This document shows positions 4,816 to 51,695 of a stretch of DNA of 53,280 nt, piece after piece. Position 1 is the stretch's first letter; every line of letters starts with the position of its first letter. Source of the DNA: a virus (Duplodnaviria > Caudoviricetes). The stretch is taken from the IMG/VR virus record IMGVR_UViG_3300021961_000137, positions 1 through 53,280 of that record; one strand, given 5' to 3'. The notes below the pieces were generated by a model that was not told the origin of the DNA, did no database searches, and worked only from the letters and a program-made list of their open reading frames with translations. The position numbers and the translations under genes were made by a program.

Positions 4816-5382
4816 TTATGCTTCTTCGGTTGAAGGTGTCCAGTATTGAACTTGGAATTCAACGGTAAACTCTTCAATAGCATCTGAACTATCATAAGAT
4901 AGATCGATTGCAGAAATATTAGTTGGGAAGATATCATAAAACTTATAAGTTGCTGCAACTTGCAAACCAGAACCGAATGGGGTATTTTTGCCTACATTAC
5001 TCTTTGATCTCTTAAATTGCTTCACAAAAGCATTGACCATATAGTTTGCTGGGTTTGAAAAACCACTAGCATCACCATACTGTCCAATGGATTGCATCCA
5101 TCTTTCCATTGCTTCACGAATTTCAAACTTTTCATCGTTGATGATAGTTACAGTCCATGTATCAAAGGTGCGGTCGCCCGCAACTTTGAAAATTCTTCCT
5201 CTAAAAGGAACATCGATAGAACCAATGTTTGATGCAGGCAGTGCAGCTGCTTTGCACAGAATTGGAAAATTATTAGTTAAATTTACTCCAGAAGGTGGAG
5301 TTGGGATGGTTACCTCAAATAGATTGGGGCGTGCGCCGCCTCCAATAAGTGCTGATTTGAAGTCCTGAATAGAGTTTGCCAT
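4816..5382 (-). CDS. gp19: Tail tube protein
   Basis: GGARPNLFEV, AGDRTFDTWTVT and IEEFTVEFQVQYW motifs; between sheath and portal genes. Confidence 0.95.
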   Translation of the reverse strand: MANSIQDFKSALIGGGARPNLFEVTIPTPPSGVNLTNNFPILCKAAALPASNIGSIDVPFRGRIFKVAGDRTFDTWTVTIINDEKFEIREAMERWMQSIGQYGDASGFSNPANYMVNAFVKQFKRSKSNVGKNTPFGSGLQVAATYKFYDIFPTNISAIDLSYDSSDAIEEFTVEFQVQYWTPSTEEA

Positions 5383-5417
5383 TTTTTAGTTCCTCCTTGT
5401 TTTTGTTTTAATTAAAA

Positions 5418-29394: not shown

Positions 29395-32300
29395 TTATGA
29401 GGCATAATTTTTATATCTGAGTGGATTTTTTCTAATCACTATTGCTGATGTTGATAACCCACTTACTCCACCTAAAGTATATGAATTAAATGAAGTTGAA
29501 TTTTGTATTCTACTACCAATAATTTTGCCCCAACTATATGTTCCATAATTAATTGGAGTTGATACTGGAGAAAATGTAGTTACACTATCAAAAGTAAAAT
29601 CTGTGGTATCAAATGTGGTTGCTTCAGAATCAAAAGTACCTGTTATATTTTCATCCATGAAGTGCTGATTATAATCATAACCATTTAAATTAGATACGTT
29701 TGTTGTAATTCTAGTTACATAGGTGAGACCTATGCCAGTTATAATTCTTCGTATCACACTTGAAGATGAAACTTCAAAAATGTTATCAATACATTCTGTT
29801 CCCACTCCAATGATACTATTATCAGAATATAGTGTAGTTATCCCAAAACCAATGTTTGAATTCTTAACAACAAAATAATCGCCAATTTGGATACTTGGGA
29901 CAGTGATTGCAGATCCCACAATAGATGGTTGTCTTAAATATGAATCTGCTGGGATAAAGAGATCTAGAGTAATTCCCGTAGATCCAACTCCAACATTTGT
30001 TTTACCTGAACCAACAATATAACCAAAATCTCCAGTGTAAGTTGCATTAACAAATGGTTCTTTTTTAAATGTTGGTGGTTCTATTAAAACACTAGGAGAA
30101 ACACTATATCCTATTCCAGAAGAAATGACTGCAATTGAAGAAATAGTACCTCCCGCAGATACTGTAGCACTTGCAGTAACAACTGTTGCAGTACCAAACC
30201 CAACTGGATTTGAAATAGAAACAGTTGGAGAAGTTGTGTACCCAACACCACCATCAGTAACTAAGATTGATGCTATTCCACCACTAGGAGCAAGAATTGC
30301 AGTTGCTGATGCAGATACGACCGAATCTTGTGATAAAATTTCAATATTGGATACATATAAATTTGAAGTATTTTCTGTTTGATTGTCAAAGAAAGTTTTT
30401 ACACTTTCTACATATATGACAGTTGATCCAACACCAACACTTTTGATTATATTTGATGATGGATAAATGAGAGGTTCATTTATTGTTCTATCTTTAGTTA
30501 CTGATTTTCCATCAATAATTACGTCTTCAGTCTGTTTACACCAGTTTATAGGTCTCTTTAGATTTTCATTTAGAGTTATTCCTGGACCAGAGTAATTGTT
30601 AGTATTGAGAGTATCAGTTGATAATATGTTTGTTATTATTCTTTCATCCTCTCTCAGTTCAATTTTGTCATCATGAAGGTCAAAATAATCACCGATTTTT
30701 ACAGATTCTAGAATATCAACATCCAATACATCAACATCACCTGTTCCTTTATAGAATAAAATTTTACAAGTGTCTCCCTCTTTTGGTGCTTCCGTAAAGG
30801 TTAAGTTACTACCTCCTTTAAATACGTAACCTTGTCCAGGAACCTGTAATATGTCATTTAAGAAAACTAATAAAGTAGCTTCCACATCAATTAAAGAACC
30901 CGCTCTTGCTTTTATGGATTTTTGTTGTCCATTTGCAGTGATTGGGAAAGAAACTCTATTTCCATCGAATAAACTTTGAATTTCATCTAAAACTTGTAAA
31001 TCACCAATAACCCAACTAGAAAATCTGTCAGACTGTGTTTTTTCTATTATTATTTTAAATTCTTCAAATTGTAAAGATGAATTTGTTGGAATTCCTACTG
31101 TTCCGCCGATACTGACTGTTAATATTTCTCCTTGACCATAACCATAACCAATATTTTTTATTTCAAAATCAATTACACTAGAACCTTGACCAACAACAAT
31201 ATCAATTGTTGCTTGTGTTCCAACACCTACACCTAAAGGAGAAGAATTACTATAAACTAAAGGTATATTTGAATAAGAAAGTGGTGCATCAAAAAATACA
31301 AGAGGTGGATTTGTAAAAGTATAACCAGTTCCTGGATTTGTAATAGCTACGCTTACAACATTGCCACCACTTACAGATGCAATTCCGATAAATTCTATAT
31401 TTGAAATATTATTATTGGATGTTAAAATTCCAACGTTGACAATTTTTTGAATTCCTGATCTATATCCAGATCCACTATTTCCAATACTAATTGACTGTAT
31501 TGTACCGGATATTGATACTATAGCAGTCCCTGCGGCAGAAACGAGAGGTTGATATCCAAACCCTTTAGAAGATGCTACAGATACTATTGATCCACCAACA
31601 GGAACATTTGAAGTATTGTGATCATTTGGAGTGGTTATTGAGTTTCCGATAAATTGTATAGTGGTTATACCTACATTTTCTTTTAGAAGATAATTTCCAG
31701 TAACTGATACTGGGAAAGTATTTCTACGTGGTCCTTGTAAAACTTGGTTTATCAATACAATAGAATTACCTTCAGAAAAACCAAATACATCATTTTTATT
31801 TGATTTTAATCTAAATTCCGTTTTTATTCCAGAGAAAGATTCGGAAATATCATCAAAAATATAATTTTTTGAATAAGGTTCTGATGAACTGTTTTTTACA
31901 CCAGATCTCACAAAAACTCTTCCACTAAAAGAAGAATTTGTCGTAATTCCTATCCAATCTTTTTCATCGGGCCTACTTGAAGTAGTTCCTATTGGAACAG
32001 GTCCGTATGGTGGAGATACAAAATTAATACTATTATTTACTATATTGTAATCACCAAAAACTTTAGTTATTACTGAGTGTTGGGCATGAGAAGCAATTCC
32101 TGTACCCATCCAACCTCTATCAACTAGAAGAACGCTAGTGCTTCCAAAACCAACAGTTTTAACTCGGACAATTTCATTGTCAATCTTTAAAAGATCTCCG
32201 CCAAAAATAGAGGTAATTCCTGATAGATTAATAGTATCTTGGGTAATTAAGACCTCACTATTAGAACTTGATGTGATAGCAGTGGAGACTATTGGAGATT

Positions 32301-35300
32301 GAATTACATTATCAATAGAAATAAGAACTCTTGAATTTTGATTTTTTGAAGTAAATTTGTGTATAGATCCTATTCCAACTGAAGTAATGTCTAATTCTAT
32401 TGGGAAAGTTTTTAGTGCGTTCTCTGCACTTGATGCTAATTTTAATTCAAGTTCGTTAACTTTAATAGCATATACTGAAGATGGAAGTTTATTAGTTACT
32501 CCAATACCCGAGAAAGAAGTTGATGCTATTCCAATGGGTCCAGAAGTTAAACTATAACTATAAGAAAGTTCTTCTCCTGTCACAAAAAAGTGATTTGGAA
32601 TTCTGATAGTATTTTTGTTAATATCTACGATATTTGGATTATTTCCTTCAAAATTTCTTTCAAAAATTGGTAATTTTTTATTTTTTAAATCAAATGTTCT
32701 CTTAATTTCAGAGAAAGCTGAATAATAACTTGATAATTTTGAACTTATTGATGAACTATTCAAATCAACGGGATTTGTTGGATAAACATCAGTCAAACCA
32801 AGTATGTTCTCAAATACTCTAACTTCAATGTTGGTATTTTCAATTGGAGTAAAGTAAAGTTGAACATTATTACCAGAAATATTGGCACTTATGCTTCCTA
32901 AATCATCTCCAGTAGAAATCTTACCAAATTCTGTGATGTAAACATTACCGGAGTCATTAATAACAATCACTTCAGAAAGTTGTGATCTATTGTTTGTAGT
33001 ATCATTTACAGAAACAATATAATATGCAGAATTAAAGATAAACTTTTCATATTCACATATCACATTTTGAGATGGTGATGAAGTTGATGCAATAGAAGTA
33101 TATGAAGACTTTAATCTATTTGTTGATATGCTACTTATTCCTGTGGTTGTTGTTGAAGTATTTCCAATAGAAATACTTAATGTATTAATGACATAAGAAA
33201 CACCTACACCAACATGTGGAGTGAAGTTTAGATTTAAATTAGAACCAGAAAAACTAGTTTCGTAGTTACCTAATCCTTGTGTTGACGTAGAATCTAAATT
33301 TCCATTTGTCAATTGACCATATTCTAAAATAGAAACATTAGTTCCATCATGTACAATTGATACTTCATCGAACTCGCAGTAGCTTTCGTCTAAAGCAGAT
33401 ATTGTAACTAAAATTTTGGAGGAGGTATAGTTTGAAGATATTCCAACAATTGTAGTTTCTCCACTTGTTCCTGAAGGAATTATGACACTAGATGACTTAA
33501 TATCTACAACATTTCCTAGTGTAAAAGTGCTAACTCCGGCAATAGAATCTTCTAAATCATATGAGATATAACTTATATCATAATCATTTATTTGATAATT
33601 TATAGGATAGAACAACAAATTACCTTCATCTCCAAAGTAAGATACATCAAAGGTTCCTAAGTTTTGAACCGTTTCTAGAGATGCATACTGTGAAATAAAG
33701 GAATAATCTGGAGAATTTAAAATACTTACAATAGAAGATTGCCTTTCGGCAGTGTACCTCATGTCTCTAATATAAATTATATATTTTTTAACCTTATTTG
33801 GAGATAGTCTAAATGTATCAATTGTTCCATAGTTTGATGATCTTGGATTGCTGTTAAATTGTGGACTAATATCATCAATTACTAATACTCTATTCCCAAC
33901 AGATTCTAAGTAATCTTGAACAATTGCAGAATTAAGTACAATTTCTTTCGAGATAGTATTAGAGTCTATATTTAATGTTTTTTCTGATGCAAGATCAAAA
34001 TCTGATACGCAATTAAGTCCATTAACGCTAATGAGATCAGTTATTCCGATAAAATCTCCCAGATTTTGATCTGTGGAAATTCCTGATGAAGTTTCGTCTA
34101 CAGACTCTACTAGTAAATCTGCAAACTTTTTAAATCCTATAGTATGATTTTGATTACTGACTACATCATTCCACTTATCGTATTGAACTTTAGATTTTAT
34201 TGAGTATGAAAAATATTGATAGTAATCACTATCATGTATTCTTTGATTACTATTGTTAAAGAATCCAGTTTCTCGCTTCCAACCTTTTTTAACGATTGAA
34301 TTTGCTCCAGTATCATACGTTGCATTATTTTCTTCTACAAAAGAAATAATTGCCTGAGAACCTGAAGAAGAACCAATTACTCTCTCTCCTTGTTTAAATG
34401 GTCTATCACTAAAAACTTTTAAAATTTGATTTAAATCATCCCACCCATCAACAATTCCATTTGCACTCTTACTTAAAAGAGTTTCATTTTTGAAAAATTT
34501 ATTTTTTTTCAAAGTTACATTAAAAATTGGAGTATACTTTTCTAGTACTACTTTTCCAGAAGAATAAGTTTGATTAAAAATTCCAGGATCTTCATTTGAA
34601 CGAAGGTAATTTGTTAAATTATATGTTATAGTTCCACCAGATCCTCCAATATTTGGATCTATTGAAGTTAAAGTAAAATATTCATAGTTATATGATGATG
34701 AGTTGTATCCTCTCAAAGTGGTTCCTATACCAACACTAGTACCTTCAATAAAAACTTTATCTCCTACTTGGAAAGGATAATCTGACGCATCACTATAAGT
34801 AGTTGCTAAAGAAACCACAACATTCTTAGTTTCTTTGTTGAACGATATTGAATTAATACTAATACCATTCGAATTGTTAACTGGAACAATCCTTGGTACA
34901 CGATCATCAATTGATTTTGTATTTTTTAATATCTTTACTTCTTTGTCTGTTAATTTAAAACTAAGATTTACATCATCTATTATTGTATTAGTTAAAAAGT
35001 CTAAAACAACTAAGTCGGGTGGTGTAGTATAATTCTTACCAATTGATGTTATCCCAATTCTATCAAAAGTTAACAGATTATTTACTTTAATTATTTGCGC
35101 AAGTTTTGCTGTTGGTCTTAATGTTTTGTCTGCAGAATACTCAAATCCAATATCTTCTATTTCTGTGGAAAGAACATTTCCAATACTTTTTGATGATGGA
35201 GTTAGAGCAGCATAATCTCCTGTAGATGTAGCTATAGAAACTACAGTTGGAATACGTTTGTAAAAACTTCCAGGAGAGACTGTTTTAAATTTATCAATTT

Positions 35301-38300
35301 CACCAGAAGCAAATCTAGAAGTTGTAGTATACTCTAATTTACTTTCTGAAGGTAAATATGATGATTTTTCTGGAATTGTTCTAATATTGTAAGAAAAACT
35401 ATTTTCAGTTACTTTGGAAATTTTGTGATTACCAGAATATGCACTGTTGGAAATAATAATCGCATTATTATTAACAATATTTTCAGTATCTTTTATTATT
35501 GATAATTTATTTTGATCATTCTCATCCAAATTTATTGGAGTTAAACTATAGTATAATACTTTAGGTAAATTATCGGTTATATCTATAGTAATTTTTGCAT
35601 TTGTAGTAACTCCAACTATCCCCTCTCTAGAAATTTCAAACGCTTTATTTCTAGTGGAAGTTTCAAAAATATTTTTAAAATTTTCATCAGTATATAAATT
35701 AAATTTAAATGCGGGATATCTTTGGGAATTTTTTACATAAGATAAAGATTGGTCAGTCAGATCAAATATAATAGGTTGATTTCTTAATGCAATAATGTGT
35801 GGATTAATTGGCGAAATTGTACCAAAACTAGAAGATGTTATGTTAACAACCACAGGTCTCTTTATACTTGCATTATAAAAAGTTTCCGAAAGTTTAAATT
35901 TATTTTCATCAACAACGACAATATAATATATTTTTTGATTTTTTAATCCATCACAAGGTGATGTTGAAGTATGAATAATTTTTTGTGCGTTTCTATAACC
36001 ATGAGATAAAATTGTAATTGTATCATTTAGTAAATCAACATCCGATGAAGAAAAATCTTTTGGATTTATTACTAATCTCTTATTTGGATTATTATACTTT
36101 ACGATGTATGTCGTCGATAATCCAGGATTACAAGTTACATTAATTTCATCAAAAACTTGTAGTCCATGGGAAGATGCTGTAGATACTGTTACAAGATTTT
36201 TGGTAGCTTTACCACTAATAACATTTTCATAGTTTGTTTTAAAACTATGAATTACACCATTACCAAAATCAGTAAAATATAACGTATCCGTGAAAATACT
36301 GCTATTAATGCCTACAAAATTCCCAGTAGATCCTACTCCAACTCTATTTGTCGCAATACCTATTAAATTATCAGTAATTCTAGCAACAAACAATGTTTGA
36401 TTATCTGATAATTGATATGAATATGTTCCATTTGTAGATATTGATATTGGAGATCCACCATTACTTGAATAGATTAAACTATCTCCAGTATTTAAATTAT
36501 GATTTGGTAAATATATTGATTTGGTTGGAATAAACAAAGAACTTATTCCTATTCCAGGATTTGAAAATGTTAGAGTGTACCCAATACCTACACCAGATAC
36601 TGTACCTAATCCAATGGATTCTTTTGGATCAAAATAAATTTCTTTATTGTATTTGTATTGATATAATACTGTAGATATTCCTGCCTTAAATGCAAATTTT
36701 CTTGATCTTTCATACAAAGAGGTTGATAATGTATGAGATGTTCCAACAGTGCCGTCATATTCTCTGTATACTCTTATTCTACTTAATTTTGGATCTATAT
36801 TTAAAACTTTTATTTTTTCTGTTCCTATACCAAGAATATCATTTTCTCTTATATTTGGATAATATAATGTACCGTATACATTAAAGTAAGTAACAATACC
36901 TGTAGATGATGCAGGCAATACATCTGAACCTAATACAAAAACTTCAGATCTAACTCCAATTGCACGAGATCCTTCTAATAATGTTCCAAAAGTGGATATT
37001 CCTGATATATTTGCGAAATCAAAATTAGAAAGTGTGTGTGGACTTGTGGAAAATCCAACAAAAACTCCAGGGTCCGCATTGATTAAAGGTACAAATTCTA
37101 CGTTAGTTATTGATGTGGTGCTAACTGATATTTGTCCAATTGGTTTCCCTTTAACACTAGAAACTTCAAATGATGCACCTTGTCCCTCAGTATCTGTGTT
37201 ATTGAAAACAAGTCTATTAGTTACTTTATAATTTGATCCTGCAGAGTTTATTCCAATAAAATCGACAGATCCTTTATTGACTTTAGTAACTACTGAAGTT
37301 TGTTTTTTTATTTTATTTGGGTTAATAATAAAATCATATTTACTAAATTCATTATTTAAATTGTAAGGTTTTGTATTTCTTAAAAACTTTGTTTTATTTA
37401 AATCAATATTGTCTTGATTGGATAAAAGACTAAAATTATAATCTATTGGTTTTGATTTATATTCATTTCCAATAAAATATGGAAAGACGGGTCTTCTATA
37501 ATTTCTAAATGGTCCAGAAGTTTCTACATCAATTGTATTGATAGTAGAAAAATATGCATATGTTCCATTTGGATACTCTGGAGTTACGCAAAATCTTCCG
37601 TTAAACTTATCCAAGTCACCTGATTGATTATACTTGTAATCTTCTACAAAAAATCCTTCAGGATATAACGTAGTTGATGGTCTTCCTGGAACTAAAGAAA
37701 TTTTGTAACCAGATTCTAAAAGTTTTATTGAACCTCCATCTAAATTCGAATACCCATATGGTCCATAAATCGGGTTTCCATCATATGCCCATCCTATTAT
37801 TGGAGAATGTAACTTTGATAAAACTTCTTTTCCATTTTCAAGTTGAAGATCTGGAGAAAATGTTAAATTTCCTCCAATGAGAGATTTCGAAGATACTGTT
37901 CTACGTAAATATCTTGGTGGATATGAATGAGTATATTGAAGACCATAATCAGAATCTAATCCGGCAACAATCGATCCATCATCATTATAAATTTCTTCAC
38001 TTATGATAGATCTTTCTACTAAATTAACTGTCCATACTTTAGGTACTGCTTCAAATTTTGCACCAGATCCAGAAGGAATTACATTAAGAGTTGTTGTTGA
38101 AGTTGTAAATCCTCGACCATTATAAAGAACTTTGACTTCTGAAATAGATCCATTCTTTACGACTGGTGATAATTTTGCACCAACTCCAGTTCCAACTATT
38201 TGCAGTGAAGGAGTTGAATTATACCCAGAACCTGGATTAATTACCAAAATTTCAGTTATTTTTCCTGCAGAAACAATCGGAGATAGTTCAGCACCACTGC

Positions 38301-41300
38301 CAGAATTCAGTGTAAATGATGGTTGTCTATTAAAATTTATTATATCATCTGTACCATAATTAGAACCACCAGATTCTAAGAAAACTGATTTAATTTCTCC
38401 ACGAAATATTGGATCTAATACCGCATCAAAATTTTGGTTTGTGCGAGTAGATACTCCAATTACACCAGACACTTTTACTGATATTGGTTCGTAATTAAAG
38501 TAGTGAATACCAGATCCAGTAGAATTAAATCCTACAAATTGTTTTGTAGAAAAATAAAAATCTTTGTTTGTAGAAATTCCAACAATAGCAGAACCAATAC
38601 CTATCGTTGAAGCAGATCCAACAACAGATAATTTAAAAGAATTATTATCAACCGCAGTTACATAATAAGAATTTCCAGATACTAATCCACCAATTTCATT
38701 TCCAGTCGCAGTGTAAACAATTATTTCTCCGGTTTTATAATTATGTTCTTGCGCAAAAATAGTATTCGTATTTGTATTAATACCAGTCGGAGATACTGAA
38801 ATTTTTCTATTTTTATATCCTGACCCAGGATCAACAACTTTAATTGAAGTAATTTTTTTCTTAACATCTGTCGATACAAATCTTTGAATTCCATTTCCAA
38901 AAGATGTCAAGTCTATCGTATTAATACCAACCAAAGCATCTTGATAAGTATTATGAACTTTAACAGTAAAAGAATCTTGAACAGACACATGATAAACAGC
39001 ATCTGTAGTTATTCCTCCAATTGCAGTCTGTTTCTCAGTTTTATAAATTATTTTTTCAGCGTCTCTAAATTTATGTTGGGTAGAAAAACTTATAGTATTG
39101 TTGGTTAAATTTACTAAACCTGCTCCATCAGAAGAATTAAATGTAACTGAGTGCTCGAATGAAAATAACTCAGGAATTGCTCTTGCTCCAGATCCAGAAC
39201 CTCCTGTTATTGTTATAGTTGGTTGACCAATATAATCAAATCCACCATCAATAACTTCTATATCCTCTAATTTTCCATGAACTTCGCAATAACCTGTCGC
39301 GCCAGTTCCTACAGTATCGTTAATTGAAAGAATTGGTGGATTAATTACATCATAATCTGCTCCAGGAGAAAGAATATTTATTTTTTCTAAAGGACCATAA
39401 AAAATCTTATCTCTGGATTTATAATTTAATATTTCAACACCATTTGCAAGTATTCCAATTGTTCCAAATTTCGTCTCATAATTATCTGTTACATTTTGAG
39501 GAGTTTGAATAGATCTAACTAATTTTTGAGAAGATAAAGTTTTATTTGAAAGACCAACAAATGATATTTTATTGTCAATTACCGTAGCGGAAAATGTAAT
39601 GTAGATATTCTTGTATAAATTTTCTCTACTCCTTGCCAACTTTATTGTGTTTGCATCAACTTTTCTTACAAAATATGTCCCTTGCGTTATTCCTAAAGAA
39701 TTTGTAGAAGAGACTGGTTCGTAAACTACAGAATCTCCTGTATAAAATCCATGTTTACCTATATTTAAATCTTCACCTTCAAAAGTCCCAGAAAAAGTTA
39801 AAGATCTATCCTTAGTGCTTAATTCTTCATTAAAATATGAAGGCAAAGAAGAAGAAGTGACATAATATGATCCCTCTTTGTCATAATAAGTATTTTGAAC
39901 ATTTGTTGAGTAAATACTTGCTTTTGGGAAATTAGAAAATTTAGCTTTTGATAATTGTTTTTGTATTTTTATTTTTTTAGATCTATCAATCTGTCCCTGT
40001 CCACTTATACTAAAAGTTTTTTTGTTAGAAACTGAAGTAACATTAGAATTTACTTTTGTACCATCACTAAAAAATAATACTATAGTGTCTCCTACATATA
40101 ACTCAGTATCATCATATGTTTTTATTTGGTAAGAAAAATTTATATTATCAATTAAATTTACTGTTTCAACATCATAGGATGTTGCTAGGTTAAAAATCCA
40201 AGTATTACCTTCAATACTTTCGTCATTTTTGCCTAAAGATTCTATTTGTATTTTATTTCCTGTACTGTAATATCTTGTATTTTGACCAACTTCAAGATCT
40301 GATAAAACTCCAGTAATTCTAAGTTTTACTACATTACTTGTTCCTAGACCAGAATACGAATATGCATATGTATTGATTCTGATATTTTGACCGGAATTTA
40401 TATCTTGAGTTATTCCAGAACACTCATAAAATTGGGTATAAGATTTAGACTTATACGAAATTACCACAGAACTTCCATTTTCTAGGTCAGCAATAATTTC
40501 TCCGGAGTTGGGAAATCCTACCGTGGAATCTACATCTAAAACGGTTGAACTTATTTTAGCATCTGTAATAACTGTGGTCTGTGGATGTACAGAAAATTCA
40601 TCTAAATCAGATTCTGGTGCGTTTGAATTATAGTCCAAACTAATGACATAATATTCTTTTTCTCCTCTAAAAATTTTCTCGACGTTGTTTATTGCACCAG
40701 AGGACTTTGGTATAGTACCATAATTATCTTGATATAATGTTCTGTTTACAATATCGTTAGGATTTCCTTCAATAACTTCAACTACTAAATCTCTTGTTAA
40801 TCTATATTGAGCATCTGATGGAATAAAAAGATAATCCCTTGGTTTAATAACTTGAACATCTTCTCCATATAAAGCTCTGAAAAGAATTTCAAAAGATTGA
40901 TCTGTACCTTTAGATGAATAAAAATCTTTAGATTGCTTTATGAATAAATTTTCATTTAATTCTGAATAAAGTTCTCTATTTTCAAATCCAGGTACAAACT
41001 GCTTTTTAATTTTTTTGAAAAATTCTTTTAGAAAAAGAATACTTAAATTCGATACTGTAGATCCAGATTGATGTTCATCTATCTCACTAGAAGAAAATAC
41101 TAAATGATCTACTTTACTTGGATCTTGATATGAAGTAACTCCACTAAATCCTCTTACACACCCTAAAAAAGAATTATTTGTTTTTGATGTATATGTTATT
41201 ATTTCTGAATTAATTTTTAGTAAACCGTAAGAATCTGAAAATCCCTCTGTTGATGTTACAAATATAGTATCATCCGAAAATCCAACAAAGGAAGTTGTTG

Positions 41301-41502
41301 TTGTAGAATCTATTAAATTTGTAACTTCATCCAATTTAACATACTTATCGATATTTTGGAGAATATCTAATGTTGCACCTTTATGCTCTAAAGATTCGTA
41401 ATATTGGGACAAAAATTTTGCAACTAAAGGAAAATCTTCCTTTACAAAAGTTGGAAGTTGATTTTCTACAATTGAACTAATTTTGATTCTTGCGTTTACC
41501 AT
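29395..41502 (-). CDS. gp7: Giant baseplate wedge initiator (gp7-like), 4035 aa
   Basis: Follows gp6; QLPTFVKEDFP, FYSSKGT...FRALYG and IHDSDYYQYFSYSIKS...HTIGFKKFADL motifs; many GxGY repeats. Confidence 0.8.
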   Translation of the reverse strand: MVNARIKISSIVENQLPTFVKEDFPLVAKFLSQYYESLEHKGATLDILQNIDKYVKLDEVTNLIDSTTTTSFVGFSDDTIFVTSTEGFSDSYGLLKINSEIITYTSKTNNSFLGCVRGFSGVTSYQDPSKVDHLVFSSSEIDEHQSGSTVSNLSILFLKEFFKKIKKQFVPGFENRELYSELNENLFIKQSKDFYSSKGTDQSFEILFRALYGEDVQVIKPRDYLFIPSDAQYRLTRDLVVEVIEGNPNDIVNRTLYQDNYGTIPKSSGAINNVEKIFRGEKEYYVISLDYNSNAPESDLDEFSVHPQTTVITDAKISSTVLDVDSTVGFPNSGEIIADLENGSSVVISYKSKSYTQFYECSGITQDINSGQNIRINTYAYSYSGLGTSNVVKLRITGVLSDLEVGQNTRYYSTGNKIQIESLGKNDESIEGNTWIFNLATSYDVETVNLIDNINFSYQIKTYDDTELYVGDTIVLFFSDGTKVNSNVTSVSNKKTFSISGQGQIDRSKKIKIQKQLSKAKFSNFPKASIYSTNVQNTYYDKEGSYYVTSSSLPSYFNEELSTKDRSLTFSGTFEGEDLNIGKHGFYTGDSVVYEPVSSTNSLGITQGTYFVRKVDANTIKLARSRENLYKNIYITFSATVIDNKISFVGLSNKTLSSQKLVRSIQTPQNVTDNYETKFGTIGILANGVEILNYKSRDKIFYGPLEKINILSPGADYDVINPPILSINDTVGTGATGYCEVHGKLEDIEVIDGGFDYIGQPTITITGGSGSGARAIPELFSFEHSVTFNSSDGAGLVNLTNNTISFSTQHKFRDAEKIIYKTEKQTAIGGITTDAVYHVSVQDSFTVKVHNTYQDALVGINTIDLTSFGNGIQRFVSTDVKKKITSIKVVDPGSGYKNRKISVSPTGINTNTNTIFAQEHNYKTGEIIVYTATGNEIGGLVSGNSYYVTAVDNNSFKLSVVGSASTIGIGSAIVGISTNKDFYFSTKQFVGFNSTGSGIHYFNYEPISVKVSGVIGVSTRTNQNFDAVLDPIFRGEIKSVFLESGGSNYGTDDIINFNRQPSFTLNSGSGAELSPIVSAGKITEILVINPGSGYNSTPSLQIVGTGVGAKLSPVVKNGSISEVKVLYNGRGFTTSTTTLNVIPSGSGAKFEAVPKVWTVNLVERSIISEEIYNDDGSIVAGLDSDYGLQYTHSYPPRYLRRTVSSKSLIGGNLTFSPDLQLENGKEVLSKLHSPIIGWAYDGNPIYGPYGYSNLDGGSIKLLESGYKISLVPGRPSTTLYPEGFFVEDYKYNQSGDLDKFNGRFCVTPEYPNGTYAYFSTINTIDVETSGPFRNYRRPVFPYFIGNEYKSKPIDYNFSLLSNQDNIDLNKTKFLRNTKPYNLNNEFSKYDFIINPNKIKKQTSVVTKVNKGSVDFIGINSAGSNYKVTNRLVFNNTDTEGQGASFEVSSVKGKPIGQISVSTTSITNVEFVPLINADPGVFVGFSTSPHTLSNFDFANISGISTFGTLLEGSRAIGVRSEVFVLGSDVLPASSTGIVTYFNVYGTLYYPNIRENDILGIGTEKIKVLNIDPKLSRIRVYREYDGTVGTSHTLSTSLYERSRKFAFKAGISTVLYQYKYNKEIYFDPKESIGLGTVSGVGIGYTLTFSNPGIGISSLFIPTKSIYLPNHNLNTGDSLIYSSNGGSPISISTNGTYSYQLSDNQTLFVARITDNLIGIATNRVGVGSTGNFVGINSSIFTDTLYFTDFGNGVIHSFKTNYENVISGKATKNLVTVSTASSHGLQVFDEINVTCNPGLSTTYIVKYNNPNKRLVINPKDFSSSDVDLLNDTITILSHGYRNAQKIIHTSTSPCDGLKNQKIYYIVVVDENKFKLSETFYNASIKRPVVVNITSSSFGTISPINPHIIALRNQPIIFDLTDQSLSYVKNSQRYPAFKFNLYTDENFKNIFETSTRNKAFEISREGIVGVTTNAKITIDITDNLPKVLYYSLTPINLDENDQNKLSIIKDTENIVNNNAIIISNSAYSGNHKISKVTENSFSYNIRTIPEKSSYLPSESKLEYTTTSRFASGEIDKFKTVSPGSFYKRIPTVVSIATSTGDYAALTPSSKSIGNVLSTEIEDIGFEYSADKTLRPTAKLAQIIKVNNLLTFDRIGITSIGKNYTTPPDLVVLDFLTNTIIDDVNLSFKLTDKEVKILKNTKSIDDRVPRIVPVNNSNGISINSISFNKETKNVVVSLATTYSDASDYPFQVGDKVFIEGTSVGIGTTLRGYNSSSYNYEYFTLTSIDPNIGGSGGTITYNLTNYLRSNEDPGIFNQTYSSGKVVLEKYTPIFNVTLKKNKFFKNETLLSKSANGIVDGWDDLNQILKVFSDRPFKQGERVIGSSSGSQAIISFVEENNATYDTGANSIVKKGWKRETGFFNNSNQRIHDSDYYQYFSYSIKSKVQYDKWNDVVSNQNHTIGFKKFADLLVESVDETSSGISTDQNLGDFIGITDLISVNGLNCVSDFDLASEKTLNIDSNTISKEIVLNSAIVQDYLESVGNRVLVIDDISPQFNSNPRSSNYGTIDTFRLSPNKVKKYIIYIRDMRYTAERQSSIVSILNSPDYSFISQYASLETVQNLGTFDVSYFGDEGNLLFYPINYQINDYDISYISYDLEDSIAGVSTFTLGNVVDIKSSSVIIPSGTSGETTIVGISSNYTSSKILVTISALDESYCEFDEVSIVHDGTNVSILEYGQLTNGNLDSTSTQGLGNYETSFSGSNLNLNFTPHVGVGVSYVINTLSISIGNTSTTTTGISSISTNRLKSSYTSIASTSSPSQNVICEYEKFIFNSAYYIVSVNDTTNNRSQLSEVIVINDSGNVYITEFGKISTGDDLGSISANISGNNVQLYFTPIENTNIEVRVFENILGLTDVYPTNPVDLNSSSISSKLSSYYSAFSEIKRTFDLKNKKLPIFERNFEGNNPNIVDINKNTIRIPNHFFVTGEELSYSYSLTSGPIGIASTSFSGIGVTNKLPSSVYAIKVNELELKLASSAENALKTFPIELDITSVGIGSIHKFTSKNQNSRVLISIDNVIQSPIVSTAITSSSNSEVLITQDTINLSGITSIFGGDLLKIDNEIVRVKTVGFGSTSVLLVDRGWMGTGIASHAQHSVITKVFGDYNIVNNSINFVSPPYGPVPIGTTSSRPDEKDWIGITTNSSFSGRVFVRSGVKNSSSEPYSKNYIFDDISESFSGIKTEFRLKSNKNDVFGFSEGNSIVLINQVLQGPRRNTFPVSVTGNYLLKENVGITTIQFIGNSITTPNDHNTSNVPVGGSIVSVASSKGFGYQPLVSAAGTAIVSISGTIQSISIGNSGSGYRSGIQKIVNVGILTSNNNISNIEFIGIASVSGGNVVSVAITNPGTGYTFTNPPLVFFDAPLSYSNIPLVYSNSSPLGVGVGTQATIDIVVGQGSSVIDFEIKNIGYGYGQGEILTVSIGGTVGIPTNSSLQFEEFKIIIEKTQSDRFSSWVIGDLQVLDEIQSLFDGNRVSFPITANGQQKSIKARAGSLIDVEATLLVFLNDILQVPGQGYVFKGGSNLTFTEAPKEGDTCKILFYKGTGDVDVLDVDILESVKIGDYFDLHDDKIELREDERIITNILSTDTLNTNNYSGPGITLNENLKRPINWCKQTEDVIIDGKSVTKDRTINEPLIYPSSNIIKSVGVGSTVIYVESVKTFFDNQTENTSNLYVSNIEILSQDSVVSASATAILAPSGGIASILVTDGGVGYTTSPTVSISNPVGFGTATVVTASATVSAGGTISSIAVISSGIGYSVSPSVLIEPPTFKKEPFVNATYTGDFGYIVGSGKTNVGVGSTGITLDLFIPADSYLRQPSIVGSAITVPSIQIGDYFVVKNSNIGFGITTLYSDNSIIGVGTECIDNIFEVSSSSVIRRIITGIGLTYVTRITTNVSNLNGYDYNQHFMDENITGTFDSEATTFDTTDFTFDSVTTFSPVSTPINYGTYSWGKIIGSRIQNSTSFNSYTLGGVSGLSTSAIVIRKNPLRYKNYAS

Positions 41503-46319: not shown

Positions 46320-46649
46320 CTTTCTTCACCGTCCTTTTGTCTGGGTGAGAATGTCCACCTTTATGAATCCATTTGACTCCCATCCAATTCTCCTTTGTTT
46401 TAACTGAGTTTATTATAAGTCCTTATTTGGATCTATATGATTTATGTGTGGCACTTTTTGAACTGTCTTTTTACCTCCGGAAAATTTTTATGAGATTGAT
46501 ATATCGTTCGCGTTTTGTCACCTCTGTAGGTTAGGGTAGTTTGGGTTTTTATAAACGGGCAACGCAAAATATAAACAATAACAAACAACATAAAATAACT
46601 GCCTATTCACGACACTGACAAATCACGATTATCACTATAAAGAATTAAA

Positions 46650-46683
46650 GAGGGCACAGTATAAAGAATTAAACAGTGCCCTC
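46650..46683 (-). terminator. Hairpin / probable terminator after 46697..47413
   Basis: GAGGGCAC...GTGCCCTC inverted repeat followed by T-rich sequence on the minus strand. Confidence 0.6.
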
Positions 46684-46696
46684 ACAGTTAGTTACA

Positions 46697-47413
46697 TCAC
46701 CACCCAAACTTATCAGCGCAGATAGGACCAATGCCACGCTCAATCGACTGCGGATCGGTTAGTTCACGACCGCAACATGAGCACTCTCCAGATACCTTAC
46801 CGTAGCGGATTGCAGCGGTGAGAGGATCACTGGAGGCACTCAGAATCACCTCCTTAACATCATCAGAGAGACGCGAATCAAGTGCAGAACGTGTTACTTT
46901 ACCCAGGTATTTGGGTTGCAAACCATAGTTACCTTCCTCCTTTTCAGTCTGAGAGGTAACCCACAGTGCGGTAAGATCACGGTTTGGTTTAACATTAACA
47001 CCCTCGAATCGCAGGGTCAAACGCTTTGCACCCTTACGCTTTGCTGCCTCGAAAGCATTAAACAACGCTTCAAATTGACTGGGTTGAGTATTATCAACCT
47101 TTTGCGGTTGAGTATTATCAACTGCCAACTTGTGCGCCCAAGCGTATTGCTTTTCACTCAAACGATTAAACTTAGCAGCAAGATCTTGAGCGAAACTAGA
47201 ACGCATCCCACGCAGAGTTTGCAACACTTGAGAATCAGAAAGTGTAGAGGTAAAAGTAACAACCTCGCCCTTTACAGTTACAGTAAAGGTTTGGGTGATA
47301 GTTTCCTGCGCTAAATCATACTCAAGCGCAGCAGCAGCGGCAGGGTTCACAGCGTGGAGATCACCCAGCACGCGGGCGAGGAGGGCGTCGGTGCGGTCAG
47401 CAGTGGCAGGCAT
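46697..47413 (-). CDS. Early protein with C-terminal DUF6011-like zinc finger
   Basis: CSCCGRELTDPQSIERGIGPICA C-terminus; minus-strand -10 TAGGAT upstream. Confidence 0.75.
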   Translation of the reverse strand: MPATADRTDALLARVLGDLHAVNPAAAAALEYDLAQETITQTFTVTVKGEVVTFTSTLSDSQVLQTLRGMRSSFAQDLAAKFNRLSEKQYAWAHKLAVDNTQPQKVDNTQPSQFEALFNAFEAAKRKGAKRLTLRFEGVNVKPNRDLTALWVTSQTEKEEGNYGLQPKYLGKVTRSALDSRLSDDVKEVILSASSDPLTAAIRYGKVSGECSCCGRELTDPQSIERGIGPICADKFGW

Positions 47414-47512: not shown

Positions 47513-47634
47513 TTGACCGGGTACCCGGATGCTGTAGAATACGCACAAGGGCACCCTGCGCGGAAATACTGGTATAAAGAATTGGCAAAAAGATGGGTCC
47601 CTAAGTGTTACTTAAGGACCCTACAGTTCTTTAT
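47513..47634 (+). ncRNA. Candidate small RNA unit 1 (sigma70 promoter, ACCCTGCGCGGAAATA, long stem)
   Basis: TTGACC-16-TAGAAT; motif 47553-47568; stem GGTATAAAGAATTG/CAGTTCTTTATACT encloses hairpin 47595-47621. Confidence 0.55.
47587..47621 (-). terminator. Terminator of 47641..47973
   Basis: Minus strand GGGTCCTTAAG-taaca-CTTAGGGACCC then ATCTTTTT; same hairpin at 48177-48203. Confidence 0.7.
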
Positions 47635-47640
47635 ACTATA

Positions 47641-47973
47641 TCAGACAAGTTTGGCACTACCAGTGAACTTAACATCGCCATCGGTTGTTGATAGAAACCA
47701 CTGGTGATTCTTCTGATAGATTCTTTCATACTTGCCATCCTTATCTTTACCTCTACCATGCTTTTCAAGAATAGCATTCAGTCTGCTTTTTGTGGTGTTT
47801 GTTTGATACCCAGCATCGAACAGTTCCAACCACGTATCAGCAACCATTGCAATCAAATTATCATACAAATAGACGAAAGATACGCCTTCAATGTTGATAA
47901 CTTGTGTGTTATCTTTCTTCCAATCATACTCACCTTGAATCGCAGCATTCATTGCAACTTCGATCTTACGCAT
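47641..47973 (-). CDS. Hypothetical early protein
   Basis: 110 aa with GYQTNTTKSRLNAIL; own TTGACC promoter upstream and terminator downstream. Confidence 0.8.
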   Translation of the reverse strand: MRKIEVAMNAAIQGEYDWKKDNTQVINIEGVSFVYLYDNLIAMVADTWLELFDAGYQTNTTKSRLNAILEKHGRGKDKDGKYERIYQKNHQWFLSTTDGDVKFTGSAKLV

Positions 47974-48095
47974 TGGTGTGATTGAATTCGACTTTTATAG
48001 AATCCCACAGAATCGCGGAAAGGTCAACCCTTTTTTGATTAGTTTCTTTTATGAGACCGATAAGCGATGCAAATGTTTCATTTCACGAAAACCGG

Positions 48096-48219
48096 TTGAC
48101 CGGGTACCCGGATGCTGTAGAATACCCGTAGGGACACCCTGCGCGGAAATACTGGTATAACAAACTGGTGAAAAAAGGGTCCCTAAGTGTTACTTAAGGA
48201 CCCAACAGTTTGTGTTACT
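48096..48219 (+). ncRNA. Candidate small RNA unit 2
   Basis: TTGACC-16-TAGAAT; motif 48136-48151; stem ACAAACTG/CAGTTTGT encloses hairpin 48177-48203. Confidence 0.55.
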
Positions 48220-48506
48220 TAGCGAAAGGCACCAAGTTTCAAAAACTCAGCGGTAATTTGCTTCTCTGCGATACGCTTACCGTTGATCTGGAAAGTATAA
48301 CGCAACTGCCCTTTTACAGTTTTTGAGACTTTACAGGTGAGCGTAATTTCACCATCACGTTCACCAGTAGGATCATACTTTGCGAAATAATGATGACAAA
48401 CTCCAGGAAGACGATAATCAACAACGTCGTTCAGTTTGTTATAGTGTTCCAGAGCAAGTTGCTCAGAAAGTTTAATAGAATCGAAGAGGTCGTTGATGTT
48501 GTTCAT
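48219..48506 (-). CDS. Hypothetical early protein
   Basis: 95 aa; minus-strand TTGACA at about 48555-48560. Confidence 0.75.
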   Translation of the reverse strand: MNNINDLFDSIKLSEQLALEHYNKLNDVVDYRLPGVCHHYFAKYDPTGERDGEITLTCKVSKTVKGQLRYTFQINGKRIAEKQITAEFLKLGAFR

Positions 48507-48606
48507 GGGTGGAATCCCTTTCGACCCTTATAGATTCTCACAGATCCCAGATCCTGTCAAGGGTTTTTTGATCAGAGATGCTTATGTAAAGTCTTGCAAC
48601 AATCCC

Positions 48607-48766
48607 TTTACAGGGTCGCGAGATGCTGTAGAATACCAACAGGCGCACCCTGCGCGGAAATAATACTATAAAGAATTAAACAAGAATCACTAATTGATTC
48701 TTTATACTTAGTTAAATGTAAAGAATTAAATAAGGACTTCGTGAGATTTATAATCACGAAGTCCTT
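48607..48766 (+). ncRNA. Candidate small RNA unit 3
   Basis: TTTACA-16-TAGAAT; motif 48647-48662; stem TATAAAGAATTAA/TTGATTCTTTATA; second 13-bp hairpin at 48732-48766. Confidence 0.5.
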
Positions 48767-48783
48767 TTACGAGTTTGTGTTAC

Positions 48784-48957
48784 TTAGTCGCAGAACCTTT
48801 TTTCATAAGCACGGCGAATCTTATGGAGAACTTTAGAAGATTCTGCAAATTCTTCTTCAGTATAGTTCTCGGGAAACAATGCACTCAATGCTTCATCCAA
48901 CCAATACAATTCGTTCTGGTTGAATGTAATGCTGGTGGTCTTAGTTCGGGTTGCCAT
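48784..48957 (-). CDS. Hypothetical early protein, 57 aa; not in the ORF track
   Basis: Manual translation MATRTKTTSITFNQNELYWLDEALSALFPENYTEEEFAESSKVLHKIRRAYEKRFCD; TTGACT-17-TAACTT promoter upstream. Confidence 0.7.
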   Translation of the reverse strand: MATRTKTTSITFNQNELYWLDEALSALFPENYTEEEFAESSKVLHKIRRAYEKRFCD

Positions 48958-49018
48958 TAGGTTGATTCCCTTTCGACTCCTTAAAGTTACAGCAGATTCC
49001 AGCGCCAGTCAACCACCT

Positions 49019-49042
49019 TGTGCCACTAATCAAACTGTCCAC
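49019..49042. promoter_or_regulatory. Dyad operator-like box TGTGnCA(C/G)T-N-AAnYG(T/G)C(C)AC; also at 46447, 50347 and 53026
   Basis: Four related imperfect palindromes, each upstream of a minus-strand gene or early promoter. Confidence 0.65.
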
Positions 49043-49070
49043 TGAATCAACCACTGCCCTTCAAAACCGC

Positions 49071-49250
49071 TATAATTGTCTTGTACCCACCCTGCTCTGA
49101 AATAACAGTATAACAAACTAAAAAAACGAGTTCTTTATACTTTCTCTTTTTGTTGAAATTTTATTCTCCTGCAGGTATTAGGACTCATTCACGATTCCAT
49201 TCACGAAAAAACAAAAACTATAAAAAAAGAGAGAGGAGTTACCCTCTCTC
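49071..49250 (+). ncRNA. Candidate small RNA unit 4
   Basis: TATAAT 49071-49076; variant motif ACCCTGCTCTGAAATA 49089-49104; AGTATAA/TTATACT stem; hairpin 49229-49250. Confidence 0.45.
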
Positions 49251-49271
49251 AGTATCACTCAGAATCTACAT

Positions 49272-49481
49272 TCACGCAAGTTGCAGTACATTAGCGCGGA
49301 GTGCTTGATTCACGAAACTACCCACAGATTCACCCTCTTCGATGACATTGTTGAGGTCATTTTCCCAGGCATCAGTATCAGAAACCGTGTAGGTGTAGGG
49401 TTTACCATTGAACTCGATTGTCACTTGATTATTCTCAACGTCGCTGATCTTGGTGATAACGGAACTGGTGAAGTTAGGCAT
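49272..49481 (-). CDS. Small protein, KTSC-domain-like pattern
   Basis: SSVITKI...VTIEF..KPYTY...ESVGSFVN pattern. Confidence 0.55.
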   Translation of the reverse strand: MPNFTSSVITKISDVENNQVTIEFNGKPYTYTVSDTDAWENDLNNVIEEGESVGSFVNQALRANVLQLA

Positions 49482-49548
49482 GATGTTGAAAAGAATTAAA
49501 GAGAACAGTTTGAGCAGTTTAGAGTCATACTCAGGACTGTTAATTAAC

Positions 49549-50286
49549 TCAAACTGCTGCTACAGTTTTCTTAGAATAACCGCTAAACTGTTTGTTAGCA
49601 CGACGCTGGCGGATTGCAGCACCCCATGCACTACCCTTAGGTTGAGTTCCATGCACTAACAACGCAAACGGTTTGTTAATGAAACAGTGCGACTCATCGT
49701 GATCTACTTCAAGACCCGCACGGTTTGCATCATCCTCAGTCATAAAGACCTTAGCATAACGAGTAAAGAATCCCTCATCAATTAGGTAGTCAAACTTACC
49801 ACCATAAGATGCAGTAAGGTAGAAGTTATTGGGCAGAATCTTACCCATAAAGAGATCCAAACTCTTCGAATAGCAGTAGAACTTAAGATCAGGATTCAGA
49901 CGTGCTACTTCTAACCAAGCATCCAGATAGTGGTGATTAAAGAAATCACCAGACTCATGAATCCGCACTTTAGAAACTCTTTTAGTACGGTGTGATTGAA
50001 TGCTTTCGTTGATTAAATTCACAAGAGAATCATCACGCATTGCATTCACGACCAACTGAAAATTACGAGCGCGAGAGTAGAATACAGCATCGTATTGCAC
50101 TTCGGAAGATGCTGCGAAACAACGAAACTCTGTATGCTCGCCGTCTTTAATAGTACGCTTGCCGTTTGCATCAACAACTGCAAAAGACTTACAGTATAAT
50201 GCACCAGGGCAAGTCTTACCTGCAGGAAGACTAAAGATCAGCGTATCCTTAGCGATCTTACCGTTGCCGATGGAGAGTTTCAGCAT
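49549..50286 (-). CDS. Phage GP88-family-like protein (Cys cluster, radical-SAM-like pattern)
   Basis: FSLPAGKTCPGALYC...CFA, VRIHESGDFF and W...AR.NPDLKFYCYSKS motifs. Confidence 0.65.
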   Translation of the reverse strand: MLKLSIGNGKIAKDTLIFSLPAGKTCPGALYCKSFAVVDANGKRTIKDGEHTEFRCFAASSEVQYDAVFYSRARNFQLVVNAMRDDSLVNLINESIQSHRTKRVSKVRIHESGDFFNHHYLDAWLEVARLNPDLKFYCYSKSLDLFMGKILPNNFYLTASYGGKFDYLIDEGFFTRYAKVFMTEDDANRAGLEVDHDESHCFINKPFALLVHGTQPKGSAWGAAIRQRRANKQFSGYSKKTVAAV

Positions 50287-50492
50287 GGGAGGAATCCCTG
50301 ACGACTCCCTTAAGTTACAGCAGATTCCACCACCACACCATCACCTTGTGCCACTTCTCAAACCGTCCACCAGACCGCTCCAGATGCCCTCAGATGCCTT
50401 ACAATACTATCAGTTCAAGGGAAGACACCTATGAGTGTTTAATACACAATCTGCAAAGCGTAGAGAACGCAATGACACAAATCTAGACACTT

Positions 50493-50550
50493 ACCCTGCG
50501 CGGAAATAATATACTATAAACAACAAAAAAAGAGTTAGTAATACTAACTC
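50493..50550 (+). repeat. Unit 5 of the ACCCTGCGCGGAAATA family, followed by a hairpin at 50532-50550
   Basis: Exact motif at 50493-50508; nearest plus-strand -10 (TACAAT, 50400-50405) is displaced upstream. Confidence 0.7.
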
Positions 50551-50562
50551 CTTAAGTATAAA

Positions 50563-50889
50563 CTATTGCATCTCCGCCCACTTTTGAATCTTTGCTACAA
50601 CATCTTGTGCAGACTTAATCTTACATTTACGATGCTTTCCTACCAGATAATGCTTAGAAATCTGATCAAGTTTCAGATCATTATGTATTGCAAACTGAGA
50701 ATACCTAGAGTTCTGATAGATTCCATTGCTCCAGGATTCTTTATCATCAAGCGACACATTTACGAACACTGAAGGAATACCTCCCAGAGTCATAATAGAC
50801 ACAGAATACTCTTTAATTGCACTCACATTACTGAGCAATTCTTTAATCTCAGAGAGTGAAGATTCTTGAGCGAGAGTAACAATGTCCAT
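50563..50889 (-). CDS. Hypothetical early protein (start revised to MDIVTLAQ)
   Basis: Promoter TTGACA-17-AATACT overlaps the longer 50922 start, so ATG 50889 is preferred. Confidence 0.7.
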   Translation of the reverse strand: MDIVTLAQESSLSEIKELLSNVSAIKEYSVSIMTLGGIPSVFVNVSLDDKESWSNGIYQNSRYSQFAIHNDLKLDQISKHYLVGKHRKCKIKSAQDVVAKIQKWAEMQ

Positions 50890-50987
50890 GAGATTGTCTC
50901 TTTGACCCTTTAAGTATTGCACCGATCCAGCACCGTGTCAAGGGTTTTATGATCAGCAATCCTTATGTAACGATTCACGAAAAACCC

Positions 50988-51146
50988 TTGACGGATGCTC
51001 TGAGATCTGATAGACTACCTTTGTACCTACCCTGCAATGAAATAATAAAGTATAAACAACTCAAAACGAATTCACTATACTTTCACTTTTTCATGCAAAA
51101 TTAAAGTCCCACAGGTGCTTTGATACCTGCAGGACTTCATTCACGA
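50988..51146 (+). ncRNA. Candidate small RNA unit 6
   Basis: TTGACG-17-TAGACT; variant motif ACCCTGCAATGAAATA 51029-51044; AAAGTATA/TATACTTT and ATGAAA/TTTCAT pairings; hairpin about 51104-51137. Confidence 0.5.
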
Positions 51147-51177: not shown

Positions 51178-51351
51178 TTACCAACGGTCGGGTGTACTTA
51201 AGTCCTCAACGTAAGCATCACACTTCTCTGCAGGTTCCAATTTGAATAACTTTTCCCAATCAATTTGGTGTGGGTCGAAGTCTGGAAACGCGGAGATGTC
51301 TAGAGTAATCCTATAACGAACCTTCTGTGCTTGTGAATACGCAACTGACAT
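51178..51351 (-). CDS. Hypothetical protein (start revised to MSVAYSQ), 57 aa
   Basis: Near-consensus promoter at 51379-51407 lies inside the longer called ORF. Confidence 0.75.
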   Translation of the reverse strand: MSVAYSQAQKVRYRITLDISAFPDFDPHQIDWEKLFKLEPAEKCDAYVEDLSTPDRW

Positions 51352-51378
51352 AAGTACGCTCCTTTGTGTTATGAGAGT

Positions 51379-51407
51379 ATTGTAAGATGCTTGGGAGAAC
51401 TTGTCAA
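51379..51407 (-). promoter_or_regulatory. sigma70-type early promoter
   Basis: TTGACA-17-TACAAT. Confidence 0.85.
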
Positions 51408-51477
51408 GTCCTGGTGGATATTTATTCGGGTCTGTGTGATTTTTTGCGGGATCTGTGTGGGTTTTGTAACGGCGGCA

Positions 51478-51506
51478 TTGACATTTTTGCGAAGTGCTGA
51501 TACAAT
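51478..51506 (+). promoter_or_regulatory. sigma70-type promoter pointing into a non-coding region
   Basis: TTGACA-17-TACAAT on the plus strand; no ORF downstream. Confidence 0.75.
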
Positions 51507-51695
51507 GCACGCTAAGATAACGACTCCCAGAGACATTTAGAAGGTATAAAAAGGTCTTTATTCTCAACAATAAACACTATTGATTCTCAATAAAATAACA
51601 CTTATTGAGAATAAGTTAAACAACACAAATACATTTAAAATAACATTTATTTAATAAAAAAACGTTTTTTTACACTATTTTAACCAAAAAACAAT

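Follow-up and report, generated by a model that had tools for sequence, protein, structure and literature searches.

A conserved, phage-specific promoter-leader cassette facing antisense to small phage genes

In T4-type phages, the promoter-early stem-loop (PeSL) cassettes form a known kind of repeated regulatory element (Arbiol et al. 2010, PMC2839356; Comeau et al. 2014, PMC4122927). In phi1 and RB49, so far as the account in PMC2839356 goes, repeated sigma70-consensus promoters with AT-rich upstream tracts lie between small genes, and some of the GC stem-loops are located between the -35 and -10 hexamers. Here we describe a comparable element in a 53,280-nt stretch of viral DNA (IMG/VR record IMGVR_UViG_3300021961_000137; the whole stretch is referred to as the window), in which a 16-base box, ACCCTGC-N3-GAAATA, recurs opposite small minus-strand genes. 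This element, a promoter-leader cassette that faces antisense to the genes, is conserved and specific to phages. PeSL is its closest known kind, which is here inverted and carries a transcribed box.

As PeSL cassettes are described in the sources above, both kinds recur between genes where T4-like phages carry small, variable genes, and both have a sigma70-consensus promoter, an AT-rich upstream tract, and adjoining GC-rich stem-loops that terminate upstream transcription. In contrast to PeSL, the best promoter here turns its back on the downstream gene and points into the terminator of the upstream gene, the genes have separate and weaker sense promoters, and the hosts are cyanobacterial. The transcribed box is invariant, and one class of cassettes, class 2, adds a covarying leader hairpin.

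Antisense RNAs are also known from cyanophages. CfrI is an antisense RNA in S-PM2, and it is the sole antisense RNA that the review names for T4-like cyanophages in the part concerned (PMC2984593). Transcripts of cyanophage P-SSP7 are described as having almost complete antisense RNA coverage, which is said there to protect from RNase E (PMC9692554), and such protection is likewise described for host mRNAs (PMC3113571). As far as these accounts reach, the cassettes resemble CfrI and the P-SSP7 RNAs in being read opposite phage protein genes, where action through an RNA-RNA duplex is plausible. Those RNAs, however, are single or long and were found by experiment, whereas the cassettes are a family of many copies that share a promoter and box and are known from sequence alone. 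In sibling trans-acting small RNAs (sRNAs) with a conserved single-stranded seed, a general class, each of many paralogous copies has a promoter to itself, an unpaired box conserved at the 5' end, a linker rich in A and a hairpin.

Boxes and promoters of the six window units

The box occurs in six exact copies on the plus strand of the window, at 47553, 48136, 48647, 49089, 50493 and 51029, all intergenic and between minus-strand genes. When up to two mismatches are allowed, there are 7 matches in the window; 100 shuffles average 1.11, with 4 as the highest count, and none of them gets to 7. The motif is non-random. An earlier note on this DNA, made from its letters alone, had placed all six copies between genes and on the plus strand, which these matches bear out. 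In five of the six units, exactly 12 nt separate the end of the -10 from the box (TAGAAT at 47535, 48118 and 48629, TATAAT at 49071, TAGACT at 51011), and four of these five have a -35 at 16–17 nt (TTGACC, TTGACC, TTTACA and TTGACG in units 1, 2, 3 and 6). Both the sequence and a promoter scan agree with the earlier description of this layout, and in the scan the -35/-10 pairs of the four units match the consensus at 9–10 of 12 positions.

The plus-strand promoter of unit 1 (47513..47540; TTGACC, a 16-nt spacer and TAGAAT, with 10/12 consensus matches) is followed, 12 nt past the -10, by the box ACCCTGCGCGGAAATA at 47553..47568. Unit 2 has the same two hexamers and spacer at 48096..48123 and its box at 48136..48151, while TTTACA and TAGAAT, again 16 nt apart, make up the unit 3 promoter at 48607..48634, with the box at 48647..48662. 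The TATAAT of unit 4 (49071..49076, plus strand) stands without a good -35 ahead of the box ACCCTGCTCTGAAATA at 49089..49104. The promoter of unit 6 (50988..51016, plus strand) consists of TTGACG, a 17-nt spacer and TAGACT, with TG preceding the -10, and its box ACCCTGCAATGAAATA lies at 51029..51044. Unit 5, whose box is at 50493-50508 on the plus strand, has no -10 at the 12-nt spacing.

Minus-strand terminators lie immediately to the right of the boxes and adjoin five of the six units in a terminator scan, which agrees with the earlier proposal that the GGGTCC hairpins terminate the convergent genes. At unit 1, an outer inverted repeat (GTATAAAGAATTG / CAGTTCTTTATAC, 47572..47636) surrounds the minus-strand terminator hairpin at 47595-47621. 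The terminator of gene 48219..48506 (48177..48203, minus strand) lies within the outer stem of unit 2. Unit 3 carries the hairpin CTATAAAGAATTAA / TTGATTCTTTATAC and then a GC hairpin at 48732-48766, the two together at 48666..48766, downstream of gene 48784..48957. The scan further places minus-strand terminators at 49229..49250 for gene 49272..49481, at 50529..50553 for gene 50563..50892 and at 51102..51139 for gene 51178..51570.

The genes opposite the cassettes have their own, weaker sense promoters, back to back with the antisense ones. An example is the minus-strand promoter at 50913..50941 (TTGACA, a 17-nt spacer, AATACT), back to back with the promoter of unit 6.

The window is a linear fragment with a CheckV completeness of 25%. 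Judged by strong PHROGs matches for portal, terminase, tail sheath and baseplate wedge proteins, together with DNA similarity restricted to Synechococcus phages, it belongs to a T4-like cyanomyovirus. The minus strand carries all sizeable open reading frames (ORFs), including every ORF with family support. Two small genes in the cassette region match Kyano_Gp96 and GP88 in Pfam, and the small genes opposite the cassettes are probably early genes. The region is rich in promoter-like sites (19 vs 10.9 ± 2.7 expected) and terminator-like sites (11 vs 3.7 ± 2.0 expected) in the two scans. The T4-type late promoter words TATAAATA and CTAAATA occur at six places on the minus strand of the window. 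We rejected a T4-type late promoter as an identity for the TATAAAGAAT box: TATAAATA and CTAAATA precede minus-strand late genes, and TATAAAGAA does not.

A family in two classes

The box followed by TATAA is found in 24 IMG/VR stretches, often in several copies each. A regular expression retrieved 54 copies, which include the six of the window and one chance match within an ORF (L008), and a profile search with a looser expression brought the total to about 102 copies. Apart from those of the window, about 100 copies lie on roughly 30 uncultured phage contigs, gathered in one region of small genes that is 3–8 kb long. Among the 102 copies the first half ACCCTGC is present in 86, and the second half is GAAATA in 58 and AAAATA in 35, frequencies that are biased by the looser expression, which predetermined the box variants that could be seen. 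Copies within a contig are 85–95% alike, and assemblies often end at cassette clusters. On the larger contigs (45–133 kb) all copies are confined to one stretch of 1–5 kb (5/5 contigs), and in this single cluster per contig the cassettes share the hyperplastic region of T4-like phages with PeSL.

A PeSL promoter faces its downstream gene and ends in the Shine-Dalgarno sequence and start codon of that gene. The family departs from this, since the summed length of opposite-strand ORFs within 1.5 kb of the box exceeds the same-strand sum for 52 of the 54 copies. One of the two exceptions (L024, 9320) is ambiguous by ORF sum, and in its surroundings a gene starts on the minus strand, as it does at its neighbours. 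The other (L014, 4452) is a sense-oriented copy, in which the module lies about 90 nt upstream of a same-strand DUF6011 gene; it therefore acts there as a working promoter and leader. With the class 2 covariance model introduced below, seven other loci have one flipped copy each, overlapping stretches of the same contigs included.

Isolated phages gave no meaningful match to a unit. Cellular genomes (596 Gb) gave 27 single, scattered matches in diverse phyla, against a chance expectation of about 50 by our own estimate, so the family is phage-only. No Rfam family matches: a search of 126 kb gave no hit, and the best scores in other searches were 21–32 bits against gathering thresholds of 36–175. 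Literature searches with the literal motif returned unrelated primer matches alone, and those on cyanophage antisense RNAs and promoter motifs left the element undescribed, with the candidate list of PMC10690425 lying outside their coverage. The earlier view that the element belongs to no known family holds for Rfam; on account of its likeness to the PeSL cassettes of T4-type phages, the element is not without precedent. The central proposal of the earlier note, a paralogous family with a fixed box behind plus-strand promoters, antisense to genes, is upheld and extends to related phages.

Over the 102 copies, -10-like hexamers peak at two distances before the box, 12 nt (41 hexamers) and 52–58 nt (64 hexamers), and each copy carries a plus-strand -10-like box upstream, at either 12 nt or about 55 nt. 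We refer to the 37 distinct copies selected for TAnnnT ending 12 nt before the box as class 1. A -35 with at least 4/6 matches at 16–18 nt is present in 28/37 of these, an A-run of at least 4 just upstream in 22/37 and TG before the -10 in 21/37, so that the sigma70-consensus early promoter with an upstream AT-rich tract that marks PeSL is found here as well. In 8 of the 28 class 1 copies with a good -35, a stem-loop lies between the -35 and -10 hexamers. The adjoining stable stem-loop of PeSL, a terminator or attenuator, likewise has its counterpart, at five of the six window units and in the form of a main GC hairpin in 69/85 copies of the family.

Class 2 comprises 50 distinct sequences (alignment A2), with the -10, mostly TAGACT or TAGAAT and often preceded by TGn, 52–58 nt upstream of the box. 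Past the -10 come ACAAG, a run rich in purines, and a GC hairpin of 4 bp whose loop resembles NCGAA; the conserved GATGACGAnnAGTAAGCCACGCTA and then the box follow. A covariance model of this class has 108 matches in 332 kb, duplicates from overlapping loci included, and its sole match in the window is unit 5 (50429..50512, plus strand; 62.6 bits, E 1.5e-10), where the leader hairpin GCGT-AGAGA-ACGC lies at 50458-50470 and a possible promoter, TTCAAG-18-TTTAAT, ends at 50443 on the plus strand.

The class 2 leader hairpin is the sole real plus-strand covariation in the family, one that the earlier note had missed. Of its cells 92.5% are paired, and 41 are double-change cells against 11.0 in shuffles, a count that 0 of 500 shuffles reach. 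Pairing falls to 25–40% when the partner is slid by 1–3 columns, and 15 G-U cells would be A-C mismatches if read on the minus strand. RNAalifold returns the same helix and no other, and the box is left unpaired, as it is in all folds. Taken together, the covariation, the plus-strand-only G-U pairs and the flipped copy of L014 indicate that the module is a promoter with a transcribed leader, on the strand of the box. As read from these sequence features, plus-strand transcription of the cassettes is well supported. A mini-ORF in the class 2 leader (ATG ACG ... TAA) was considered and rejected, as its start, frame and stop are all unconserved.

Role of the cassettes and rival explanations

On the basis of the promoters, the fixed spacing of the box, the orientation, the plus-strand hairpin and the family-wide conservation, we propose that a host sigma70-type RNA polymerase would read each unit on the strand opposite the small phage genes. 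Transcription would begin upstream of the box, at a distance of about 5 nt in class 1 and of about 50 nt in class 2, where the RNA would open with the purine-rich stretch, the short hairpin that covaries, and 24 nt of conserved spacer. The non-coding RNA would therefore have an unpaired ACCCUGC-N3-(G/A)AAAUA near its 5' end. Past the box, this RNA would run via an A-rich tract into the complement of the convergent gene's terminator and may accumulate. We speculate that it pairs with the 3' end or the read-through of the neighbouring mRNA, a cis-antisense action that would change stability or block spill-over, and that the box may serve all units as the site at which a partner, protein or RNA, recognises them. 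That the cassette yields a non-coding RNA is likely, and a cis-antisense or insulation role is our best guess; to the whole reading we give a probability of about 0.6.

Several observations weigh against this reading. In the window, the promoter of unit 5 is unclear. The position of the box, +6 in class 1 and about +50 in class 2, means that processing would be needed for a function bound to the very 5' end of the RNA, and a DNA-binding protein could equally be what the box is conserved for. Termination signals on the plus strand appear weak: although T-runs are present on this strand in window units 3, 4 and 6, at least 5 T in the 10 nt past the hairpin are found in just 21 of 69 copies. The RNA length of 90–170 nt given in the earlier note is thus not established. 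A search for a complementary target of the box or leader in the window or in L024, a related locus, yielded just AT-rich matches of 9–16 nt, and one comparison of trans targets was confounded by locus orientation. Finally, sixteen metatranscriptome runs contain 5–17% of the sampled words, and the contigs are unstranded and mostly over gene bodies. The four riverine runs examined consist entirely of assembled contigs, from which strand, start, ends and level are not readable. Their cover falls on the bodies of genes 49272..49481, 49549..50286, 50563..50892 and 51178..51570, and the uncovered parts of the stretch are uninformative. In favour of the reading, one RNA-library contig (record 7, depth 2) spans an intergenic unit of the unit 4 type, from about the box to about +147. 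It starts some 4 nt upstream of the box in a relative's unit, although the end of a contig is not a transcription start.

The box might instead be a DNA operator, a duplex bound by a phage or host protein at two unlike half-sites one helical turn apart, which would shut down the antisense promoter or stand as a roadblock immediately beyond the sense terminator, with the RNA incidental. In favour of this, a variable central triplet within invariant flanks resembles a site with two protein contacts, and the box, unpaired in every fold, keeps a fixed position: 41 of 49 distinct copies have it 4–6 nt from the sense terminator's A/T tract. Its distance from the start of transcription differs between the classes. 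Since +50 is an unusual position for an operator, no candidate binding protein was identified, and the class 2 hairpin with its plus-strand-only G-U pairs points to a transcribed and selected RNA, we regard the operator as improbable. Much the same doubt attaches to the idea that the units are PeSL-like recombination cassettes, 60–90 bp blocks kept as homology for the shuffling of small genes, whose promoters fire but whose RNAs are functionless. The position among small, variable genes of a T4-like phage, the likeness of copies within contigs and the breaks of assemblies at clusters fit this idea, and the sigma70 promoter, the A-rich upstream tract and the nearby GC stem-loops match PeSL as PMC2839356 presents it. 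PeSL promoters, however, are directed at the gene downstream and these at the 3' end of the gene upstream, and the genes here own separate sense promoters. In addition, 13 invariant bases of the box, against a variable triplet and variable flanks, suggest selection on the box and not just recent copying.

The earlier note had seen in the units structured RNAs of 90–170 nt, with a covarying stem that is an RNA structure in its own right. The stems that it listed are present in the window, where outer-stem changes between units 1 and 2 are compensated and the single wobbles of units 1 and 3 are G-T on the plus strand. The outer stem is an inverted copy of the GTATAAAGAAT box, so its arms are mostly one conserved box; it is detectable in 31/87 distinct copies, and with 17 wobbles of plus type vs 19 of minus type it has no strand bias. 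It can be read as the A-tract/T-tract flanks of a terminator, not as an sRNA-specific helix. From +16 to +100 the fold is better on the minus strand in 53/87 distinct copies, on the plus strand in 26 and tied in 8 (Wilcoxon p = 3e-4), with 242 G-U pairs on the minus strand vs 133 on the plus strand. On average, the 10 nt ahead of the main GC hairpin contain 6.2 A and the 10 nt behind it 3.8 T, which argues that it is mainly the terminator of the convergent gene, and the A-tracts on the plus side of the inner hairpins are T-tracts for a minus-strand RNA. The claimed structure is thus mostly convergent terminators and the inverted GTATAAAGAAT copy; among homologues covariation holds for the class 2 leader hairpin and not, with any strand bias, for the outer stem. 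An RNA with a downstream structure of its own is therefore very doubtful. Somewhat less remote, if still unlikely, is a set of sibling sRNAs, a dozen per genome, from the strongest early promoters of a freshwater T4-like cyanophage clade, whose shared 16-nt single-stranded box acts in trans. The cassettes resemble such siblings in their own promoter, conserved unpaired box or seed, A-rich linker, hairpin and many copies, and differ from them in the weak plus-strand terminator tail, in a free central triplet that would be unusual for a seed, and in the failure to find a target in the window or L024. If this were true, the box might, for example, titrate or recruit a host RNA-binding protein or ribonuclease, or pair with a host RNA, and the family would be a dedicated RNA-based takeover device and not a by-product of cassette architecture.

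Some further identities for the box were tried and rejected. Kink-turn or box C/D, hammerhead, CRISPR-repeat mimic and consensus pause element were judged by eye, and none had a conserved partner strand or a class-wide fit.

To our knowledge, regulation in T4-like cyanophages is poorly known beyond sigma70-like early promoters and NATAAATA late promoters. The cassettes described here add to this: they are antisense-facing, conserved and multi-copy, and carry an invariant transcribed box in their leader. They give a testable handle on how phages insulate or tune small accessory genes, on whether phage antisense RNAs are programmed or spurious, and on the diversification of PeSL-type cassettes. 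The parts of the cassette (promoter close to consensus, short leader, terminator) are also compact enough to employ in cyanobacteria.

Other features near the cassettes

The sense genes share a conserved promoter and 5' untranslated region (UTR), TTGAC-N17-weak -10-(T)AAGG.GTCG(A/T)(A/C)AGGGA(A/T)TC-N5-8-ATG, which precedes the gene starts at 47973, 48506, 48957, 50286 and 50892 and is also present in L024. Pairing of the box with this UTR (GTCG..AGGGA) was rejected, as it amounts to 4–5 bp without covariation.

We notice four plus-strand copies of TTCACGAAAA in the window, at 48082, 49200, 50974 and 51140. Two of them are just upstream of a -35 (units 2 and 6), and two stand before sense terminators (units 4 and 6). 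A box-less, unit-like remnant is found at 46560-46690, downstream of gene 46697..47413, with two direct TATAAAGAATTAAA copies around a GAGGGCAC/GTGCCCTC terminator hairpin. This gene encodes a DUF6011 protein (phrog_4046, 233 or 238 aa), which occurs both at L014 4380-5258 and at window 46697-47413. The window gene is without the module, and its leader, a short one that differs from that in L014, includes a perfect hairpin.

Short contigs with a word depth of 90–605 in all four riverine RNA libraries cover window 51206-51282, the 3' part of gene 51178..51570, with 4–5 differences from the window. At 51379-51506 and 51557-51614, two promoters stand back to back, each TTGACA-17-TACAAT with 11/12 consensus matches, and direct and inverted copies of ATTCTCAATAA follow them on the plus side. 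L011 is similarly laid out at 5080-5400, with TTGACA-17-TATAAT and many CATAAGA repeats. The layout at 51379-51614 could be an origin-like or regulatory region.

An ORF of 4035 aa lies at 29395-41502 on the minus strand, among baseplate genes. It prompted us to consider an N4-type hairpin promoter, which was rejected, as the phage is T4-like and the box forms no hairpin.

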